From Actinomycetes bacterium (lineage in GTDB: Bacteria > Actinomycetota > Acidimicrobiia > Acidimicrobiales > JAJZXF01), in NCBI GenBank assembly GCA_021802485.1, contig JAJZXF010000003.1:1636-65635 (forward strand): a DNA stretch of 64,000 nt. The letters run 5' to 3'. The translations under genes were made by a program, and so were the position numbers. The notes beneath the pieces were generated by a model. It did no database searches, had not been told where the DNA came from, and worked only from the letters and a program-made list of their open reading frames with translations. Shown here piece after piece: positions 46,428-55,242 of this stretch (position 1 is its first letter; each line of letters begins with the position of its first letter).

Positions 46428-46579
46428 AGCTTAGGTGCTCGAGTCGCACCAGAGCCCAGCCGATAACAGACCGTTTCAGCAACACTCAAAGCTCGCGAAC
46501 AACCCCGCACGGAGAGGGTTACCAACTGTTCCCCAAGGGATCAGCAACCAGCGGCGAACATACGTGCTACTATTGAAGA

Positions 46580-46865
46580 ATGAAGTTGTCCGAGTTGGCA
46601 GAGCAAGAGGGCATCCACTACCAGACTGCGTGGAAGTGGTTCAAGGACGGAAAGCTCCCAGTCCCTGCCGTCCGCACGCGATCGGGGACGATCTTGGTGG
46701 AGGTGCCACGGGCGACCAGCGATCCGACCTCGACCGTCAGGTTGCCCGCATTACCGAGTGGGCCACTGCACTGGCGATGGCCGTCTCCGAGGAGGTGATC
46801 GAGGTCGGATCAGGGATGAATGGACGCCGTCGCAAGCTCTCTCGATTGCTCACTGACGCAACGCC
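46580..46865 (+). pseudogene. IS607-type serine-recombinase transposase (tnpA) relic
   Basis: HTH part: MKLSELAEQEGIHYQTAWKWFKDGKLPVPAVRTRSGTILVEV (frame of ORF 46580..46798). It continues in another frame as DQRSDLDRQVARITEWATALAMAVSEEVIEVGSGMNGRRRKLSRLLTDATP. The YARVSS catalytic-Ser segment is missing, and the gene is cut at 46865 by the IS3-family element. Confidence 0.65.
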
Positions 46866-46904
46866 TGAGGTGTGTCTGACTTCGCGATAGAGATCCCGTT
46901 TCGA

Positions 46905-48002
46905 TCAAACCACATCATGGGGTCTCCGGTCGGGTTGTTTCTGTGTTGGATTTCTATGATAGGCGAGTCTGCGAAGGCGTGCTGATTCCAGTCCGGCCTC
47001 TCGTGCCTTGCGGATCGCTGGGCCACGTCCCTCGTGCTCGTCGTCGGGGGTTACATAGCCAATCCCGGCATGGAGGCGTACCCCGTTGTAGTGGGTGCGG
47101 ATGACAGCGAGCTCGGCCCGCAGAACCGCTGGATCCTCTATTTCGAGCAGGTGGGGGTTCTCCATCTTCAGGTGTCCGTTGAAGGACTCGATCCACGCTT
47201 GATCGGTCGGGGTCCCAGGCCGACCGAAGTGCTGGGCAATCGCACACATAGCCATGAACTCCCGGGTCGATCCCGAGGTCATCTGTGGTCCATTGTCTGA
47301 CACTGCGAGCAAGACGGGTCGGTTCTCGTCATCGACTCCTGGATCGACCAGAGCGTCAGCACGGGCTTCGACAAGTGCGAGTAGTCCCTCTGCACAAAGC
47401 GCGTCAGTGAAGACGATCTCGACCTGGGTGGAGGTCTCCTCGCAGGAGACGATGTCGGCCAGCCACTTGCGGCTCACCAGATCCTCGACGATCGTCACTG
47501 CCATTTTGCAGCGGGGAAAATGAGTCGTGTCGTAGATCCAGATCTGGTTCGGGCGGTACTGAACCCATTCGGGGAATGGCTTGCGCAAAGAGGTCCCCGG
47601 TCGTGGCGGTGCTTTGAGATGAAGCCCGTGAGCAGCAAGGACACGCCGTAGTGATGAGGGAGACACCCATACGCACTCCAGGTAGGAGCCCCGGTGGGCG
47701 AGCTTGCGGTGAGAGCGATCGACATCTCCCCACTCGTGGTAGAGCGCTACGATCTCTGTCACCTCGTCATCTAAGAGCCCGTGCATCGGGTTGCCTCCTG
47801 GTGCACGGTCTGAGAGCTCGCCAGCTACCCTGCGCTCGACCCACCGATAGACCCGGAGCTCGTTGAGTTCGAGTTCTCTGCACGCAGAGCGAAAGCTCCA
47901 GCCTTGATCGCAGGCGGCATCGATGAGCTCGAGCAGTGCTTCCTTGGTGGCCGCATCGACTCGGCTTGGGACTTGGCCACTCAGCCCCAGCGTCCTTTTC
48001 CC
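46905..48002 (-). CDS. IS3-family transposase OrfB (rve/DDE), expressed as OrfAB fusion
   Basis: Part of ORF 46905..48449 downstream of the slippery site. DDE candidates: IWIYDTTHF, LAVSDNGPQMTS, AWIESFNGHLK. Confidence 0.85.
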   Translation of the reverse strand, partial: GKRTLGLSGQVPSRVDAATKEALLELIDAACDQGWSFRSACRELELNELRVYRWVERRVAGELSDRAPGGNPMHGLLDDEVTEIVALYHEWGDVDRSHRKLAHRGSYLECVWVSPSSLRRVLAAHGLHLKAPPRPGTSLRKPFPEWVQYRPNQIWIYDTTHFPRCKMAVTIVEDLVSRKWLADIVSCEETSTQVEIVFTDALCAEGLLALVEARADALVDPGVDDENRPVLLAVSDNGPQMTSGSTREFMAMCAIAQHFGRPGTPTDQAWIESFNGHLKMENPHLLEIEDPAVLRAELAVIRTHYNGVRLHAGIGYVTPDDEHEGRGPAIRKAREAGLESARLRRLAYHRNPTQKQPDRRPHDVV

Positions 48003-48343
48003 TCGACAAGCATCAGCTTTACCGCCATCTCTTTCAACGCCTCTCCCAAGCGGACAGCATCTGCCCGGGCGGCTTCGAGCTCGTAGTCGCGTTGCTTGGT
48101 CTTGGCACCGGATTTGGAGTTCGCCAGCGCGGCCAGAGCACCCTCTTTGGCAACGGTTCGTATGCGCATGACGACGCCACGATCTACTCCGTTCTGCTCG
48201 GATGCCTCTGCCATTGTCACCTCCTGGCGAACGAGCTGGAGGAAGATCTCGTACTTTTGCAACGGGGTCAAGAATCGCTTGGATCGCCTTCCGGCGCGGT
48301 CGGTTCCACGGGTGGGATCGGTCATAGGAAGATACTCCTCCAC
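47981..48343 (-). CDS. IS3-family transposase OrfA (HTH + leucine-zipper-like)
   Basis: 120-aa ORF (alternative start MTDP at 48325). Sequence: FLTPLQKYEIFLQLVRQEVTMAEASEQNGVDRGVVMRIR. The helical tail ends VEGKGRWG, overlapping orfB in the -1 frame. Confidence 0.85.
   Translation of the reverse strand: MEEYLPMTDPTRGTDRAGRRSKRFLTPLQKYEIFLQLVRQEVTMAEASEQNGVDRGVVMRIRTVAKEGALAALANSKSGAKTKQRDYELEAARADAVRLGEALKEMAVKLMLVEGKGRWG
47996..48002 (-). promoter_or_regulatory. -1 programmed ribosomal frameshift heptamer G GGA AAA
   Basis: In the orfA frame: GAG GGA AAA GGA CGC TGG GGC TGA. Slipping to GGG AAA AGG ACG CTG gives ...GKRTLGLSGQVPSRVD, which is the orfB frame. Confidence 0.7.
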
Positions 48344-48415
48344 TGGTCGTGGAAACCCGCGGATGTAGTTTGATTGACGGACCGATCTCTATCACGAAGT
48401 CAGGTGCAAACCACA

Positions 48416-48570
48416 ACCATGTCAGCATACGTGTTGGCATGGGGTGCAATTAGATTGTTAGTCCCTTGAAGCGTAAACCACGCCATAGTGCCAAACAGCG
48501 CGAGGATCACGCCAACAACGACAATCGAGACCTTGGAGTTCCCCAAGACTCCTCTCATGACCTTGCGCAT
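48416..48570 (-). pseudogene. 5-prime fragment of a third copy of the ~200-aa membrane-anchored paralog, cut by the IS
   Basis: MRKVMRGVLGNSKVSIVVVGVILALFGTMAWFTLQGTNNLIAPHANTYAD aligns with the N-termini of the 50765..51367 and 53704..54336 products. Homology stops at the IS end (48415). Confidence 0.75.
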
Positions 48571-48801
48571 CTCAGGCACTCTTCACGATCTTTGAGGCTC
48601 GGCCTCATCGAGCAGCATCAACGGTTTCATCACCTAAACGCCCACAAGCTTACGACGGTTCATGAAGTCATCTCTGTAGATAGCAAGCACCAACTGGTCC
48701 CAGCGCCTGCCTGCATGATAGATATGGCCGCGCAGACATCATTCTTGGTGTAATGATGAAGGCCACTTTGGATGAAAGGCCATCGGTGCTGGTAGCAGAG
48801 C

Positions 48802-49422
48802 TCAGCTTGTGGCCATACCAACTATTGGCTTGTTCAAGTGCTTTGCACCCATTGAGCCGTAGAACTTCGCGTCACCGAAGCTGAAGATTCCGCCGTCTGA
48901 TGCTACGAACCAGTAACCCTTGCCATCTGGGGTTGCAGCCATACCAACTATTGGCTTGTTCAAGTGCTTTGCACCCATTGAGCCGTAGAACTTCGCATTG
49001 CCGAAGCTGAAGATTCCGCCGTCTGAGGCTACGAACCAGTAGCCCTTGCCGTCTGGCGTAGCTGCCATGCCAACTATTGGCTTGTTCAAGTGCTTCGCAC
49101 CCATAGAGCCGTAGAACTTCGCGTCACCGAATGAGAAGATTCCGCCATCTGACGCTACGAACCAGTATCCCTTGCCATCTGGCGTAGCAGCCATGCCAAC
49201 TATTGGCTTGTTTAGGTGCTTTGCACCCATCGAGCCGCAGAACTTCGCATCACCGAATGAGAAGATTCCGCCATCTGAGGCGACGAACCAGTAACCTTTG
49301 CCATCTGGGGTAGCAGCCATACCGACAATTGGAGCGTTCAAGTGCTTTGCACCCATAGAGCCGTAGAAGTTCGCGTCACCGAAGCTGAAGATTCCGCCGT
49401 CTGACGCTACGAACCAGTAGCC
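48802..49422 (-). repeat. 5 x 126-nt near-identical coding tandem repeat
   Basis: Period measured from CCATACCAACTATTGGC at 48813 and 48939. The unit encodes GYWFVASDGGIFSFGDAKFYGSMGAKHLNKPIVGMAATPDGK. Confidence 0.9.
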
Positions 49423-50673
49423 AATCCCAGAAGGCGACATTGGCGAGGTGCTATAAGCAAGGATCAGGTTCTGGTATACGGATGCGCTCTTGTATGAACC
49501 TGTAGCCACGCAGAAACTCGAGCCTACGCATGAGACTGAACTGAGATAGTTTGTCTTGGTCGAAGAGGTAGACAACGATGCTGCAGAGTCTAGAGACCAG
49601 GCGCTCCCGTTCCAGGTGAGGACCAGGTTCTGAGCGTAACCAGCGGCATCGATATATTTCCCACCTGCTACACAAAAACTCTGGCTCGTACACGAAACCG
49701 ATCTGAGAGCATCAGCACTACTCCCGGGAGCTGGAAGCGATGCTTGGGTATCCACGGACCATTTGCTCCCGTTCCAGGTGAGGACCAGGTTCTTATCAGT
49801 AGTTCCGTTGTAGAAGACCCCCGCCGCTACGCAAAAACTCGCACTCGCACACGAAACAGACTTCAGTTCATTGAACTGCGACGCCGATGTCGAAAGAGAC
49901 GAAGCGGCATCGAGTGTCCAGGTGTTCCCATTCCAGGTGAGGAGGAGGTTCTGGGACTCTTTGCCTGGACTATAATAACCTGCTGCAACACAGAAACTCG
50001 CACTCGTGCATGATATTGACGTGAACCCGCCTGGCTGGCCCGTGGGGGTAGACAGCGACGCTGCGGTGTCGAGTTTCCATGTACTTCCATTCCAGATGAG
50101 GAGAGTAGTCTGCGGATTACCACTCCCGTTGATGTAGACACCCACCGCAACACAGAAGCTCACACTCACGCACGAGATGGAGGCCAGCACGTTGTCCTGG
50201 GTTGCGGAGGTGGACAACGACGCGGCGGTGTCGAGTGTCCAAGTGCTCCCATTCCAGGCGAGGAGGAGGTTCTGAGCGTTTCCGCTCCCGTTGATGTAAT
50301 ACCCGGTCGCTACGCAGAAGCTCACACTTGAACACGATACCGACATGAGGAAACTCGCAGCTGTAGACAATGATGGCGAAGGGTCGAGAAGCCATCTAGT
50401 CCCGTTCCAAACAAGGACCATGTCCTGTGGATGACTGCTCGCATTCGAATAGAATCCTGCCGCGACGCAGAACTTCTCGCTCACACACGATACGGATTCC
50501 AGTGCATTCAACTGCGTTGCAGATACGGACAATGACGACGAGGCGTCGAGAGACCACGTAGGCGCCAGCGATGCAGCAGATGCTTGAGGCGTCGAAAGCA
50601 TCGTAAGTGATCCAACAAGCAGCGCTGTCATCACGGCACCAACAGCTCCTGCTCTACAGATACGCGAAGACAC
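48802..50673 (-). CDS. Secreted two-module repeat protein, paralog B (7 Cys-pair repeats + 5 GYWFVASDGG repeats)
   Basis: ORF 48802..50970. Preferred GTG at 50673, 7 nt after GGGAGGAG (rc of 50681-50688), giving the signal peptide MSSRICRAGAVGAVMTALLVGSLTMLSTPQASA. Repeats follow as listed. Confidence 0.85.
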   Translation of the reverse strand: MSSRICRAGAVGAVMTALLVGSLTMLSTPQASAASLAPTWSLDASSSLSVSATQLNALESVSCVSEKFCVAAGFYSNASSHPQDMVLVWNGTRWLLDPSPSLSTAASFLMSVSCSSVSFCVATGYYINGSGNAQNLLLAWNGSTWTLDTAASLSTSATQDNVLASISCVSVSFCVAVGVYINGSGNPQTTLLIWNGSTWKLDTAASLSTPTGQPGGFTSISCTSASFCVAAGYYSPGKESQNLLLTWNGNTWTLDAASSLSTSASQFNELKSVSCASASFCVAAGVFYNGTTDKNLVLTWNGSKWSVDTQASLPAPGSSADALRSVSCTSQSFCVAGGKYIDAAGYAQNLVLTWNGSAWSLDSAASLSTSSTKTNYLSSVSCVGSSFCVATGSYKSASVYQNLILAYSTSPMSPSGIGYWFVASDGGIFSFGDANFYGSMGAKHLNAPIVGMAATPDGKGYWFVASDGGIFSFGDAKFCGSMGAKHLNKPIVGMAATPDGKGYWFVASDGGIFSFGDAKFYGSMGAKHLNKPIVGMAATPDGKGYWFVASDGGIFSFGNAKFYGSMGAKHLNKPIVGMAATPDGKGYWFVASDGGIFSFGDAKFYGSMGAKHLNKPIVGMATS

Positions 50674-50764
50674 GTTCAAGCTCCTCCCATTTCTCCATTT
50701 CTCAATCCCGGTATACGACGCAGAAGTGCAGCGCACACCCCATATCCAAATACCATCTCCATCC

Positions 50765-51367
50765 TCAACTATTTGGCCACCCCGGCGTCCAACCTGACCG
50801 CGGGGCATTGCTCGCTTTGCACACCGACGCGCTGGAGGCCTGATACTCATATCCAATGCGCAGGTGCTCCTTGCGAGCAATAGACCTGTCCCCCACCGTC
50901 TGGCGTTCATACCAGCAGTTCTTACCCACACCCTTAGAGGCCACGATGATCTCCTGGCAGGCATTTCCATCAGCGCAGAGGTCGACTGAGACTATTGCAA
51001 TCATCCCGGGTGTGCGCACTCCCTTTCGCTTGACGGACCCGAAATACGAGGATCTGACAACGGCACCTGTTGTCACACTAACCTTCGCGTATCCGCCAAG
51101 GTACGGATTGGTAACGTACGCGACGATCGCATGTAGGGTGACCCCTCTGTAGGACGTGGCGGTGTGGCCTCCGGCGAGTGAGTAAGCAGCATCTGCAACC
51201 GTTTTGTTGCTACCCTGGGCATAGTTGTCAGCAGTGAGCTTCGGGGTCAGATTGCTAGTCCCGAAGAACGTAATCCATGCCAGGGTGCCAAGCAGCGCGA
51301 GGATCACGGCGGCAAGGCCAAGCGAGACCTTGGAGTTCCCCAATACTCGTCTCATGGCACTTAGCAC
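50765..51367 (-). CDS. Membrane-anchored Cys-containing protein, paralog 2
   Basis: 200-aa ORF (GTG at 51367 or ATG at 51355). N-terminal TM: VSLGLAAVILALLGTLAWITFF. Conserved C-terminus: VDLCADGNACQEIIVASKGVGKNCWYERQ ... VCKASNAPRSGW. No family recognised. Confidence 0.7.
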   Translation of the reverse strand: MLSAMRRVLGNSKVSLGLAAVILALLGTLAWITFFGTSNLTPKLTADNYAQGSNKTVADAAYSLAGGHTATSYRGVTLHAIVAYVTNPYLGGYAKVSVTTGAVVRSSYFGSVKRKGVRTPGMIAIVSVDLCADGNACQEIIVASKGVGKNCWYERQTVGDRSIARKEHLRIGYEYQASSASVCKASNAPRSGWTPGWPNS

Positions 51368-51602
51368 CTCAGGAACTCTTCACGATCTTTGAGGCTCGGC
51401 CTCATCGAGCAACATCAACGGTCTCATTATGTCAGCACCCACAAGCCTACGACGGCTCATGAAGTCATCTCTGTAGATAGCAAGCACCAACTAGTCCCAG
51501 CGCCTGCCTGCATGGTAGATGTGGCCGCGCAGGCATCCTTCTTGTTTGATGTAGTGATCAAGGCCACTTTGGACGAAAGGCCATCGGTACTGGTCGCAGA
51601 GC

Positions 51603-52349
51603 TCAGCTTGTGGCCATACCGACGATCGGTTTGTTCAAGTGCTTTGCGCCCATCGAGCCATAGAACTTCGCATCACCAAAGCTGAAGATGCCGCCATCTG
51701 ATGCTACGAACCAGTAACCCTTGCTATCTGGGGTAGCAGCCATGCCGACGATTGGTTTGTTCAAGTGCTTTGCACCCATCGAGCCATAGAACTTCGCATC
51801 ACCAAAGCTGAAGATGCCGCCATCTGAGGCTACGAACCAGTAACCCTTGCCATCTGACGTAGCTGCCATACCGACGATCGGAGCGTTCAAGTGCTTTGCA
51901 CCCATCGAGCCATAGAACTTTGCATCACCGAAGCTGAAGATGCCCCCGTCTGATGCTACGAACCAGTACCCCTTGCCATCTGGGGTAGCAGCCATTCCAA
52001 CGATCGGCTTGTTCAAGTGCTTTGCACCCATGGAACCGTAGAAGTTCGCATCACCGAAGCTGAAGATTCCCCCATCTGATGCCACGAACCAGTAACCCTT
52101 GCCATCTGGCGTAGCTGCCATGCCGACGATCGGTTTGTTCAAGTGCTTTGCGCCCATCGAGCCGTAGAACTTCGCATCACCAAAGCTGAAGATGCCGCCA
52201 TCTGAGGCTACGAACCAGTAACCCTTGCCGTCTGGGGTAGCTGCCATACCGACGATCGGCTTGTTCAAGTGCTTTGCACCCATCGAGCCGTAGAACTTCG
52301 CATCACCGAAGCTGAAGATGCCTCCATCTGATGCTACGAACCAGTAACC
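51603..52349 (-). repeat. 6 x 126-nt near-identical coding tandem repeat
   Basis: Same unit as at 48802-49422, with one more copy. Confidence 0.9.
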
Positions 52350-53612
52350 AATCCCGGGAGGCGACATTGGTGGCGGCATCGGTGAGGTGCCATAGGAAAG
52401 GATCAGGTTCTGGTATATCGATGCGCTCTTGTATGCTCCTGTAGCCACGCAGAAACTCGAGCCTACGCATGAGACGGAACTGAGATAGTTGATCTTGGTC
52501 GAAGAGGTAGACAACGATGCTGCAGAATCGAGCAACCAGGTGCTCCCGTTCCAAGTGAGGACCATGTTCTGGGTCTGACCAGCTGTATCGGTATATTTCC
52601 CACCTGCTACACAAAAACTCTGGCTCGTACACGAAACCGATCTGAGAATATCAGCGCTAGTCCCAGAAGTTGAAAGCGATGCTTGGGCATCCAGGGACCA
52701 CTTGCTTCCGTTCCAGGTGAGGACCAGGTTCTTGTCAGTAGTTCCGTTGTAGAACAGCCCCGCCGCTACGCAAAAACTCGCACTCGCACATGAAACGGAC
52801 TTCAGTTCATTGAACTGTGACGTCGATGTCGAAAGAGACGAAGCGGTATCGAGCGACCAGGTGTTCCCATTCCAGACAAGGAGGAGGTTCTGGGCCATCT
52901 TGTCTGGACTATAGAAACCTGCTGCAACACAAAAACTCGCACTCGTGCAAGATATTGACATGAAGCCGCCTGGCTGGCCCGTGGGGGTAGACAGCGACGC
53001 TGCGGTATCGAGTTTCCATGTACTTCCATTCCAGATGAGGAGAGTAGTCTGCGGATTACCACTCCCGTTGATGTAGACACCCACCGCAACGCAGAAGCTC
53101 ACACTCGCACACGAGATGGAATACAGCATGTTGAACTGGGTTGCGGAGGTGGACAACGACGCAGCGGTGTCAAGTGTCCAAGTGCTCCCATTCCAGGTGA
53201 GGAGGAGGTTCTGAGGGTTTCCGCTCGTGTTCATGTTATACCCAGTCGCTACGCAGAAGTTTACACTTGCACACGATACCGACGTGAGGCCACTCGCAGC
53301 CGTGGACAATGACGGCGAAGAGTCGATAAGCCATCTAGTCCCGTTCCAAACAAGGACCATGTCCTGCGGCCGGCTACTCGGATTCGCATAGTATCCAACC
53401 GCGACGCAGAACTTCTCACTCACACACGATACGGAGCCCAAGCCATTGTCCTGCGTTGCGGATGTGGACAACGACGGCGAGGCGTCGAGAGACCACGTAG
53501 GCGCCAATGAAGAAGCAGATGCTTGAGGTGTCGAAAACATCGTAAGTGATCCAACAAGCAGCGCCGTCATCACGGCACCAACAGCTCCTGCTCTACAGAT
53601 AAGCGAAGACAC
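51603..53612 (-). CDS. Secreted two-module repeat protein, paralog A (7 Cys-pair repeats + 6 GYWFVASDGG repeats)
   Basis: ORF 51603..53921. Preferred GTG at 53612 after GGGAGGAG, as in paralog B. The signal peptide is nearly identical to B. Confidence 0.85.
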   Translation of the reverse strand: MSSLICRAGAVGAVMTALLVGSLTMFSTPQASASSLAPTWSLDASPSLSTSATQDNGLGSVSCVSEKFCVAVGYYANPSSRPQDMVLVWNGTRWLIDSSPSLSTAASGLTSVSCASVNFCVATGYNMNTSGNPQNLLLTWNGSTWTLDTAASLSTSATQFNMLYSISCASVSFCVAVGVYINGSGNPQTTLLIWNGSTWKLDTAASLSTPTGQPGGFMSISCTSASFCVAAGFYSPDKMAQNLLLVWNGNTWSLDTASSLSTSTSQFNELKSVSCASASFCVAAGLFYNGTTDKNLVLTWNGSKWSLDAQASLSTSGTSADILRSVSCTSQSFCVAGGKYTDTAGQTQNMVLTWNGSTWLLDSAASLSTSSTKINYLSSVSCVGSSFCVATGAYKSASIYQNLILSYGTSPMPPPMSPPGIGYWFVASDGGIFSFGDAKFYGSMGAKHLNKPIVGMAATPDGKGYWFVASDGGIFSFGDAKFYGSMGAKHLNKPIVGMAATPDGKGYWFVASDGGIFSFGDANFYGSMGAKHLNKPIVGMAATPDGKGYWFVASDGGIFSFGDAKFYGSMGAKHLNAPIVGMAATSDGKGYWFVASDGGIFSFGDAKFYGSMGAKHLNKPIVGMAATPDSKGYWFVASDGGIFSFGDAKFYGSMGAKHLNKPIVGMATS

Positions 53613-53703
53613 GTTCAAACTCCTCCCATTTCTCCATTTCTCAATCCCGGTATACAACGCAGAAGTGCAGCGCACACCCCATATCCAAATACCATCTCCA
53701 TCC

Positions 53704-54336
53704 TCAACTATTTGGCAACCCCGGTATCCAACCTGACCGCGGGGCATTGCTCGCTTTGCACACCGACACACTGGATGCCTGATACTCATATCCAATGCGC
53801 AAGTGCTCCTTGCGAGCAATAGACCTGTTCCCCACCGCCTGGCGTTCGTACCAGCACTTGTTGCCAACACCCCAGGATGCCACGACAATTTCCTGACATG
53901 CCTTGCCGTCAGCACAAACATCTACTGACACCTCAGACAATAACTTACCCCTCGGGAGCGATAACTGTCCCGGACGTGTAGCGGTAGTTCTTGGTGGTAG
54001 CGCTCGTGGAGCGCTCGTTACTGCCCCGCTGATCATTCTTGGTTTCACTCTATAAGCGAAATACTCGAGTCCGTAAGCATCATCTGTCGCGATGGCATGC
54101 AGTGTGACCCCGTTATAGGATGTCGCATTACGACCTCCAGCAAGTGAATACGCTGCGTTGAGAACCGCAAAGTCGCTCACTTGGGCATAATTGTCAGCAG
54201 TAACATTTAGCGGCAGGTTATGCGTTCCTAGAAACGTGGGCCACACGAGTGCGCCAAGGAGCATCAAGAATGGCACGGCAGCAAGGCCAAGCGAGACCTT
54301 GGAGTTCCTCCGGATTCGTCTCATGACACTTAGCAC
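53704..54336 (-). CDS. Membrane-anchored Cys-containing protein, paralog 1
   Basis: 210-aa ORF. The N-terminal 90 aa and C-terminal 75 aa are close to the 50765..51367 product. The central 50 aa could not be aligned by eye. Confidence 0.7.
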   Translation of the reverse strand: MLSVMRRIRRNSKVSLGLAAVPFLMLLGALVWPTFLGTHNLPLNVTADNYAQVSDFAVLNAAYSLAGGRNATSYNGVTLHAIATDDAYGLEYFAYRVKPRMISGAVTSAPRALPPRTTATRPGQLSLPRGKLLSEVSVDVCADGKACQEIVVASWGVGNKCWYERQAVGNRSIARKEHLRIGYEYQASSVSVCKASNAPRSGWIPGLPNS

Positions 54337-54399
54337 CTCAGGAACTCTTCACGATCTTTGAGGCTCGGCCTCATCGAGCAACATCAACGGTTTCATCAC

Positions 54400-55242
54400 C
54401 TAAACGCCCACAAGCTTACGACGGTTCATGAAGTCATCTCTGTAGATAGCAAGCACCAGCTGGTCCCAGCGCCTGCCTGCATGATAGATGTGGCTTCGTA
54501 GGCATCCTTCTTGCTTGATGTAGTGATCAAGGCCGCTTTGGAACTGAGCGAGGTTGAACTCTGGAAGCTCGAGGTAGAGCTTCTCGAAGTCCCAGGTGCC
54601 GAAGACATAGCCGAGGAACAGCACCACAGCTTCAGCACCAGCGCCAGAGCCGATGAGGCGTGGCTCTACGACAGCTGCGAGGTATGCATGCCTGTTCAGC
54701 GGGTTTGCGTTGTAGCCGACCACGAGGCCCACCGGCTCGTTGCTTCGACGACGTGTGACAACGAGTTGCGTGAGCACTCCTGTCTCGAAGGTGCGGATGA
54801 ACTCATCATAAGATGGGACAGCACCTCCGTAGCGCCAGCGCCACGCCACCTCTGTTGAGATCGCTATCTCATAGAGCCTCCCGTAGTGCTCACCTCCCGG
54901 TGGCTTCAGCTCTACAAGGGATCCCCTGAGCCTCAACCCCTCGGGTATGCCTGGATCATCCACGCGATCTCGCTGAACATCAGAGGACCTGGTCAGGTAG
55001 TAGGAGTATAGGCTACGCAGCGTGTCGAGCGCTTCGATGATCTCGAGCTCATCTTCTGGCGCTGATGGCTCACCAACAAGCTCTGAGACCAGCTCAACCG
55101 CAAGCATCATCTGAAGTGAGTCGAAGTCCAGATCCTCCGCGAGGCGGCTGTCAAGGCTCAAAGTCGCTCTGTCGCACAAGTCCATCTCCCTCGCGAAGAG
55201 ATCGATGAACGCCTCTTCATCAAGAAAAGGTGCCATTGGCAT
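54400..55242 (-). CDS. Carrier-protein (ACP/PCP-like) domain fused to GNAT-family acyltransferase
   Basis: 280-aa ORF. The N-terminal 75 aa contain LAEDLDFDSLQMMLAVELVSEL (DSL phosphopantetheine-site pattern). The C-terminal 180 aa look RimJ/RimL-type GNAT (LRLRGSLVELKP ... GSGAGAEAVVLFLGYVFGTWDFEKLYLELPEFN ... EGCLRSHIYHAGRRWDQLVLAIYRDDF). Confidence 0.7.
   Translation of the reverse strand: MPMAPFLDEEAFIDLFAREMDLCDRATLSLDSRLAEDLDFDSLQMMLAVELVSELVGEPSAPEDELEIIEALDTLRSLYSYYLTRSSDVQRDRVDDPGIPEGLRLRGSLVELKPPGGEHYGRLYEIAISTEVAWRWRYGGAVPSYDEFIRTFETGVLTQLVVTRRRSNEPVGLVVGYNANPLNRHAYLAAVVEPRLIGSGAGAEAVVLFLGYVFGTWDFEKLYLELPEFNLAQFQSGLDHYIKQEGCLRSHIYHAGRRWDQLVLAIYRDDFMNRRKLVGV

Follow-up and report, generated by a model that had tools for sequence, protein, structure and literature searches.

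The window analysed here, a stretch of 64,000 nucleotides (positions 1,636 to 65,635 of the forward strand of contig JAJZXF010000003.1, assembly GCA_021802485.1), belongs to the 2.86-Mb genome of an uncultured Actinomycetes bacterium of the Acidimicrobiales, available as a bin of 152 contigs and called G000 below. Its minus strand carries a tandem array. The repeated genes are mem, encoding a small membrane-anchored protein, and rep, encoding a secreted protein predicted to form a double beta-propeller. Units are named A, B and C in minus-strand order. From 5' to 3' on this strand, we find a protease gene, a GNAT gene, a spacer, mem A, rep A, a junction, relic B of the GNAT gene, a spacer, mem B, rep B, a junction, relic C, a spacer, a stub of mem C and an IS3-family insertion sequence (IS).

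A secreted, S1-type protease-like gene (491 residues, 56695-55220) marks the start of a four-gene envelope operon. It is followed by a carrier-domain and GNAT gene of 280 residues (55242-54400), assigned from weak GNAT and carrier matches and from alignments. The last 143 nt of this gene, 54542-54400, are the part found again in the array. A 63-nt spacer, delimited by alignment (54399-54337), leads to mem A, an open reading frame (ORF) of 210 residues (54336-53704); its start is likely to be ATG 54324, giving 206 residues. The propeller gene repA (53612-51603) starts at GTG 53612, has GGAGG upstream and encodes 669 residues, the length also found by gene callers in other assemblies. Junction 1, defined by sequence comparison and a genome scan, covers the 29 nt from the repA stop to relic B (51602-51574). 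Relic B is a 143-nt copy of the GNAT 3' end (51573-51431) that is 90% identical to its parent, with an in-frame CAG to TAG change and loss of the original stop. A 63-nt spacer copy (51430-51368), mem B (200-residue ORF, 51367-50765) and repB (623 residues with five 42-residue units, 50673-48802) complete unit B. Junction 2 (29 nt, 48801-48773) is followed by relic C (139 nt, 48772-48634), which has a 4-nt deletion and retains the A-type TAG. The last segment (48633-48417) consists of a spacer copy (48633-48571) and the first ca 47 codons of mem C, with ATG 48570 or 48558, and is cut by the IS. This element (46867-48416, minus strand) has two ORFs, a helix-turn-helix (HTH) orfA (47981-48343) and an rve orfB, between imperfect terminal inverted repeats, an organization that places it in the IS3 family.

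Self-BLAST (E = 0) and a repeat finder both detect direct head-to-tail repeats of a multigene unit, with offsets of 2969 and 2797 bp. One repeat, D4, occurs at three sites (48452-48747, 51249-51544 and 54218-54513). The original prediction, made from the sequence of this stretch, had proposed a repeated cassette with a third copy starting at 48570, and this geometry is reproduced almost to the base. It had also attributed the difference in unit length mainly to the number of 126-nt repeats. One such repeat explains 126 of the 172 bp, and the remainder is fully accounted for by 12 nt in a repA insert, 30 nt in the membrane gene and the 4-nt deletion of relic C.

Two plus-strand ORFs present in this region are, as predicted, antisense shadows. 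One (95 residues, 48466-48753) lies over relic C, the spacer and the 5' end of mem C. The other (98 residues, 51389-51685) lies over the spacer, relic B, junction 1 and the 3' end of repA. Neither has a Pfam match, and both would be better left uncalled in annotations.

A shared junction and the GNAT relics

Junctions 1 and 2 are identical at 26 of their 29 positions. When the 2.86-Mb genome was scanned with up to 6 mismatches allowed, the 29-nt sequence was found at these two places only. Both relics are joined to the preceding rep gene through the same novel sequence, in agreement with the original prediction. The position given there for relic B was exact, whereas the second relic ends at 48772 and not at 48775. 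Presumably, the 29 nt are the original 3' flank of the propeller gene.

Same-species assemblies, located through the membrane protein, include strain JBTSSR01 (JBT; contigs L026 and L032) and another strain, represented by contig L033. The flanks of the JBT locus are 98.6-99.2% identical to G000, corresponding to a strain about 1.3% diverged. On L026 the order is rep, relic, mem, rep, relic, mem, and both boundaries carry the 29-nt junction and a GNAT relic. The junction is also present in L033.

The relics are dead as coding sequence. They are nevertheless well conserved. They are 90-92% identical to the parent gene, and the spacer is 92-97% identical among four copies. Relic and spacer together show 90-97% identity among copies, to be compared with 62-83% for the adjacent 5' coding DNA of mem. 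Repeated conversion against the selected 3' end of the GNAT gene is the most likely cause of this conservation.

The GNAT stop codon itself adds to this picture. The TAG at 54400-54402 is premature with respect to copies B, D, J2 and JD, which read 16 codons (48 nt) further to a TGA. Without the TAG, the spacer continues the GNAT reading frame as a tail (..GADIMKPLMLLDEAEPQRS, stop TGA). Most of the stretch regarded as intergenic in the original prediction is therefore the ancestral in-frame coding tail of GNAT, a feature that had been overlooked. The same TAG allele is found in the non-coding relics C, E2 and J1. The presence of one allele both in the living GNAT end and in these relics suggests that the gene and its dead copies exchange sequence by conversion. 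A small ORF in the spacer (MKPLMLLDEAEPQRS) was considered as a leader peptide and rejected, since it corresponds to the in-frame ancestral GNAT tail and shows several non-synonymous changes in J1 and J2.

Age of the array and exchange between copies

Units A and B are 81-89% identical in DNA by self-BLAST, and divergence ranges from 11 to 35% along the copies. Synonymous (dS) and non-synonymous (dN) divergence between A and B was estimated by the Nei-Gojobori method. In mem, dS is 1.07 in the 5' part, saturated in the centre and 0.38 in the 3' part. In rep, it is 0.15-0.28 in the N-terminal propeller and 0.6-1.2 in the 42-residue repeats, where dN is about 0.03. As a calibration, dS of hisD is 0.06 between this genome and JBTSSR01, and values of 1.4-1.9 are obtained for IlvD and serA in the comparison with the sister species G001. 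At the protein level, the two membrane genes share 62-66% identity, depending on the alignment, and the two propeller genes 89%. The dN/dS ratio (omega) is 0.23 for mem and 0.19 for rep. With omega at about 0.2 for both, the two pairs have been maintained as working genes.

A maximum-likelihood tree built on the DNA of the N-terminal propeller groups G000 repA with JBT rep1 (support 100/100) and G000 repB with the L033 rep (96/96). Since the junction and the A-type and B-type propeller lineages are common to the strains, the array predates the strain split. Overall, these data argue that the array is likely to be old, fixed, under selection and reshuffled by recombination.

Such reshuffling, overlooked in the original prediction, is visible in the distribution of variants. 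It involves a fourth copy, named D, which had also escaped notice. Copy D is located on the minus strand of contig C140 (83460-85131, corresponding to L017 7461-9132), flanked by a diiron-protein gene and by hisD. Its first part is a 5' stub of the protease gene that a 1.4-kb deletion has fused to the GNAT C-terminal half, followed by a broken mem that is 87% identical to A and by the first bases of rep. The antisense frame that gives the two shadow ORFs of the window is also open over its GNAT remnant. In JBT, the corresponding fusion is an intact ORF of 267 residues (L032 9173-9976), and the mem allele that comes after it shares only 48% identity with memA.

Among the 32 informative sites of copies A, B, C and D, 16 support the partition AD|BC, 12 AC|BD and 4 AB|CD. 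Eight consecutive AC|BD sites form a run at 54425-54397 (permutation p about 0.001; runs test p 0.0004). Likewise, when the JBT and L033 units are scanned 150 nt at a time, A-like and B-like pieces alternate; the mem centre gives no match at all in these scans. The copies are mosaics, and gene conversion or recombination is the mechanism that this pattern suggests.

Of 40 relatives searched, G001 alone belongs to the same genus. It shows the order protease, GNAT, mem1, rep1, a GNAT relic of ca 95-110 nt, mem2 and a rep stub (L023, L024). Its relic begins about 110 nt deeper in GNAT and directly follows the rep stop, without the 29-nt flank. A common origin of the G000 and G001 junctions was rejected on these two grounds. 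mem1 and mem2 of G001 are 77% identical, with a dS of 0.35, and only 38-45% identical to the G000 copies. The most plausible reading is that the G001 array arose by a separate duplication of this kind. In G001 the operon lies between ilvD and serA. In G000 these two genes are convergent neighbours 44 nt apart (C97:39077-42392), showing that the operon has moved.

Several other assemblies cover the array. L028 (GCA_027410555.1) and L030 (an ENA MEGAHIT contig) are collinear with the window from 64000 to ca 47900 at 99.94-99.97% identity; the two junctions, the mem stub and the edge of the IS all fall within this span. L029 (GCA_027410785.1) is also collinear but has four fewer 126-nt units in repA (about L029 12208). 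L031, a short JGI contig, matches at 99.96-100% across junction 1. The number of array units is the same in G000, L028, L029 and L030; the contigs of JBT and L033 are truncated on their upstream side. Two further contigs take other routes. L027 (11976-12215) departs from repA within a 126-nt unit, after which it matches the tail of another paralog, on G000 contig C72, at 99.97% identity; it was therefore rejected as a single-copy strain. L025 (GCA_027410595.1, ca 10125) shows a clean switch within mem, from copy A to copy D, and links the thiolase side of the window directly to hisD. This switch is that of a chimera or a recombinant, so that L025 was not retained as evidence for an ancestral single locus. 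The joins in L025 and L027 may be either chimeras or real recombinants.

Origin of the array and comparison with known systems

A likely scheme for the formation of the array can be proposed. The starting material would be the distal end of the four-gene envelope operon (protease, carrier-GNAT, mem, rep), duplicated in tandem. As the junction suggests, a non-homologous join would have connected a site 29 nt past the rep stop with one lying 143 nt upstream of the current GNAT stop codon, thereby duplicating the GNAT tail, the spacer, mem and rep. Homologous unequal exchange then copied the junction and yielded a third unit, as shown by the sequence shared by both boundaries. The array is a genuine tandem amplification formed in place. 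The original prediction of one unequal event followed by re-amplification fits this scheme, with a single founding non-homologous join and later homologous exchange; the identical junction at both boundaries, found in JBTSSR01 as well, speaks for it. Both steps are earlier than the divergence of the known strains, and the two full pairs have remained under purifying selection since. Conversion or recombination among the units, the functional GNAT end and copy D would account for the mosaics and for a mem centre that can no longer be aligned. The relics would in turn supply homology driving further unequal exchange. Finally, in this lineage the IS3-family element cut the third mem after ca 47 codons, with loss of the DNA beyond, where other strains have a full-length gene followed by AbiEii and no rep.

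Some observations weigh against this reading of an old and recombining array. The divergence of the units could partly reflect foreign alleles imported by recombination, so that dS does not give a precise date for the duplication. Even the lowest synonymous divergence in the unit is only about twice the divergence of the relic, and the distal part of the relic decays roughly neutrally in the sister species. A regulatory role of the relic is unsupported. In a scan of 46.4-57 kb, one plus-strand promoter-like site (below chance expectation) and terminator-like sites at chance level were found, none of them in the relics. An Rfam scan of 48.3-54.7 kb gave no credible family, and the predicted fold of relic plus spacer is not unusual (z = -0.41). 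In addition, all assemblies are short-read metagenome bins. L025, L027 and L029 take other paths at the repeats, and the number of 126-nt units and the linkage of copies may vary or be mis-assembled.

The last point raises the question of an assembly artefact, in which repeats of a metagenome bin would have been collapsed or expanded. The fragmentation into 152 contigs, the more than 45 loci that share the 126-nt repeat and the divergent paths of L025, L027 and L029, whether due to assemblers or to the genomes themselves, make this worth considering. However, the units differ by 11-19%, too much for an assembler to confuse them, and both junctions, or junction 1, recur at 99.9-100% in four further assemblies obtained from separate samples and pipelines (NCBI, ENA, JGI). 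An artefact is extremely unlikely. In practice, 126-nt repeat counts and contig joins through these repeats should be treated as unreliable in short-read bins of this group. The original prediction had favoured a recent amplification, leaving the copies little time to diverge. Head-to-tail copies with an identical junction, 42-residue units that are highly identical in protein and an IS at the end of the array could be taken in this sense, but the DNA identity of the units reaches only 81-89%, and the 42-residue units are 79-94% identical in DNA despite their near-identical protein sequence. Moreover, dS between A and B, from 0.15 to more than 1, exceeds the 0.06 measured between strains, and the same junction and both unit types, as seen in the propellers, recur in other strains. 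The term "recent" cannot be maintained, and we regard this explanation as highly improbable.

Another explanation takes the relics as recombination handles that are kept for this purpose. Exchange between the GNAT end and a relic would delete, duplicate or swap mem-rep pairs and so alter the variant placed next to the operon, in the manner of orphan toxin-immunity modules behind cdiA or rhs genes. The better conservation of relic and spacer than of neighbouring coding DNA would fit such a cassette store, as would the mosaic units, the very different mem alleles found at the same position in strains 1-2% apart, the passage of contig L025 from copy A into copy D inside mem and the ISs at the array edges. 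Orphan modules with upstream homology have also been described (PMC7662968). On the other hand, the relic derives from the neighbouring gene and not from the variable one, and the copies do not look silent, as every mem and rep has its own start and a Shine-Dalgarno-like sequence and is under purifying selection. Domain scans found no toxin, immunity or recombinase domain, the relic of the sister species is shorter and decaying, and the hybrid contigs may be assembly chimeras. Relics maintained as handles in this way are thus quite unlikely. By analogy with such modules, the broader proposal is that the relics, instead of being passive debris, may be portable homology handles with which mem-rep pairs are shuffled, deleted and re-imported, including by exchange with the hisD-adjacent locus, the whole forming a store for surface variation in Acidimicrobiales; we consider it unlikely. 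If true, the hypervariable centre of mem would be the selected target, for example in recognition of phages or neighbours.

The modules referred to above are those of the orphan cdiA-CT/cdiI arrays of contact-dependent inhibition (CDI) and of the rhs-CT/immunity arrays, in which downstream modules carry upstream homology (PMC7662968). The G000 locus resembles them by its tandem downstream pairs, each placed after a non-functional fragment of the 3' part of an upstream gene, by the nearby ISs, by the strong variation from strain to strain and by a homology that could permit module replacement. In contrast, the fragment here originates from a separate GNAT gene and not from a gene with a variable tip. 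The G000 modules have their own translation starts and an omega of about 0.2. Pfam and NCBIfam reveal no toxin or immunity family, rep being a predicted double propeller, and the host is an actinobacterium without CDI or Rhs machinery in sight. The analogy fails on two defining features, and a system of that type is improbable here.

The closest parallel is classical bacterial gene amplification, which shares the head-to-tail units, one novel join at each boundary, a fragment of the flanking gene in each downstream unit and later homologous exchange. Classical amplifications, however, are young, near-identical and unstable, whereas the units studied here are 11-35% diverged, under purifying selection and common to several strains. 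The near-identity expected of a recent tandem amplification is not observed. The G000 array is a fixed paralog array and not a transient amplification. Its mechanism is ordinary, even textbook: one illegitimate join, then homologous unequal exchange, in a fast-evolving envelope locus. The interest of the locus is that of a clean natural example, in which a long-lived tandem duplicate pair has both copies under selection and becomes mosaic through gene conversion. The common origin of all units is recorded by a dead piece of the adjacent gene, which trades alleles with its living parent, a premature stop codon among them. The module itself is lineage-restricted, belongs to the envelope and has a membrane component that varies sharply between strains 1-2% apart.

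Gene products and the end of the array

rep contains a signal peptide, seven units of ca 53 residues and five (B) or six (A) units of 42 residues (126 nt). An AlphaFold2 model of repB (pLDDT 80.6) is all-beta with a blade period and shows two beta-propellers. The top Foldseek matches are only generic single and tandem propellers. With the four-stranded blades seen in the model, rep is predicted to be a beta-propeller repeat protein. The name "NHL repeat-containing" comes from one NCBI record only; a Pfam scan gave no NHL profile match for rep, only spurious L24e-type matches. The family has more than 8000 homologs, mostly in Acidimicrobiales, and the 42-residue module is found after many different N-terminal domains. 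In this genome the module occurs at more than 45 loci.

The 42-residue blades (48802-49431 in repB, 51603-52358 in repA) are at least 95% identical in protein and 79-94% identical in DNA. Repetitive beta-propellers amplified from single blades have been described, and near-identical blades were taken there as a sign of very recent amplification (PMC9218822). The C-terminal half of rep, with its five or six blades near-identical in protein, resembles these proteins, but its blades differ by 6-21% in DNA, almost all of it synonymous. Contrary to the usual reading of near-identical blades, selection and not recent amplification keeps those of rep alike.

In mem, an N-terminal membrane anchor precedes a hypervariable centre; the C-terminal domain is conserved and contains four cysteines. 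The centre is beyond alignment between copies as well as between strains. No family match was found in Pfam or NCBIfam, and only 23 representatives were found among 1.84 billion proteins. The AlphaFold2 model (pLDDT 48) is too poor for a fold search. Searches of PDB sequences with mem and rep returned nothing useful. Scans of metagenome and genome collections with the junction pattern and a mem profile gave no matches, though records close to this genome may be absent from these collections. Each mem has its own ATG with GAGG upstream, and each rep its own GTG with GGAGG upstream. We infer that mem and rep form a module exposed at the envelope, in which the membrane partner would be subject to pressure for variation.

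The structure of the array end differs among strains. In L033 the third mem is intact and encodes 196 residues. The G000 stub is identical to it for 142 nt from the ATG (48558), up to the IS inverted repeat. The L033 gene is followed by an AbiEii and HTH module, without a rep gene. Similarly, the JBT array (L026) ends with a full mem of 222 residues and then AbiEii. Regarding the third copy, the start of the unit at 48570 and an IS edge at 48416, which fits the start coordinate of the region in the original prediction, were borne out. Its nature was not, as L026 and L033 point to a terminal unit with mem only and not to a truncated full unit.

The IS cuts the third mem in G000 and its closest relatives. 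Beyond it lie the relic of another IS and then an SDR gene. That relic, on the plus strand at 46435-46890 just past the IS3 element, is an IS607-type serine recombinase remnant with HTH; the DNA after the third unit was replaced. Other copies of the IS3 element are found at the ends of contigs C31 and C94. In the L033 strain, the spacer of the first mem is bordered by a multi-copy element (L033 1-119) that matches G000 contigs C14 and C100 at 100% identity and represents a second IS-type insertion at the locus. Elsewhere in G000, paralogous GNAT genes (37-46% identical) are located just upstream of rep-family genes, with no membrane gene, at C53:44470-49745 and C68:12737-16554.

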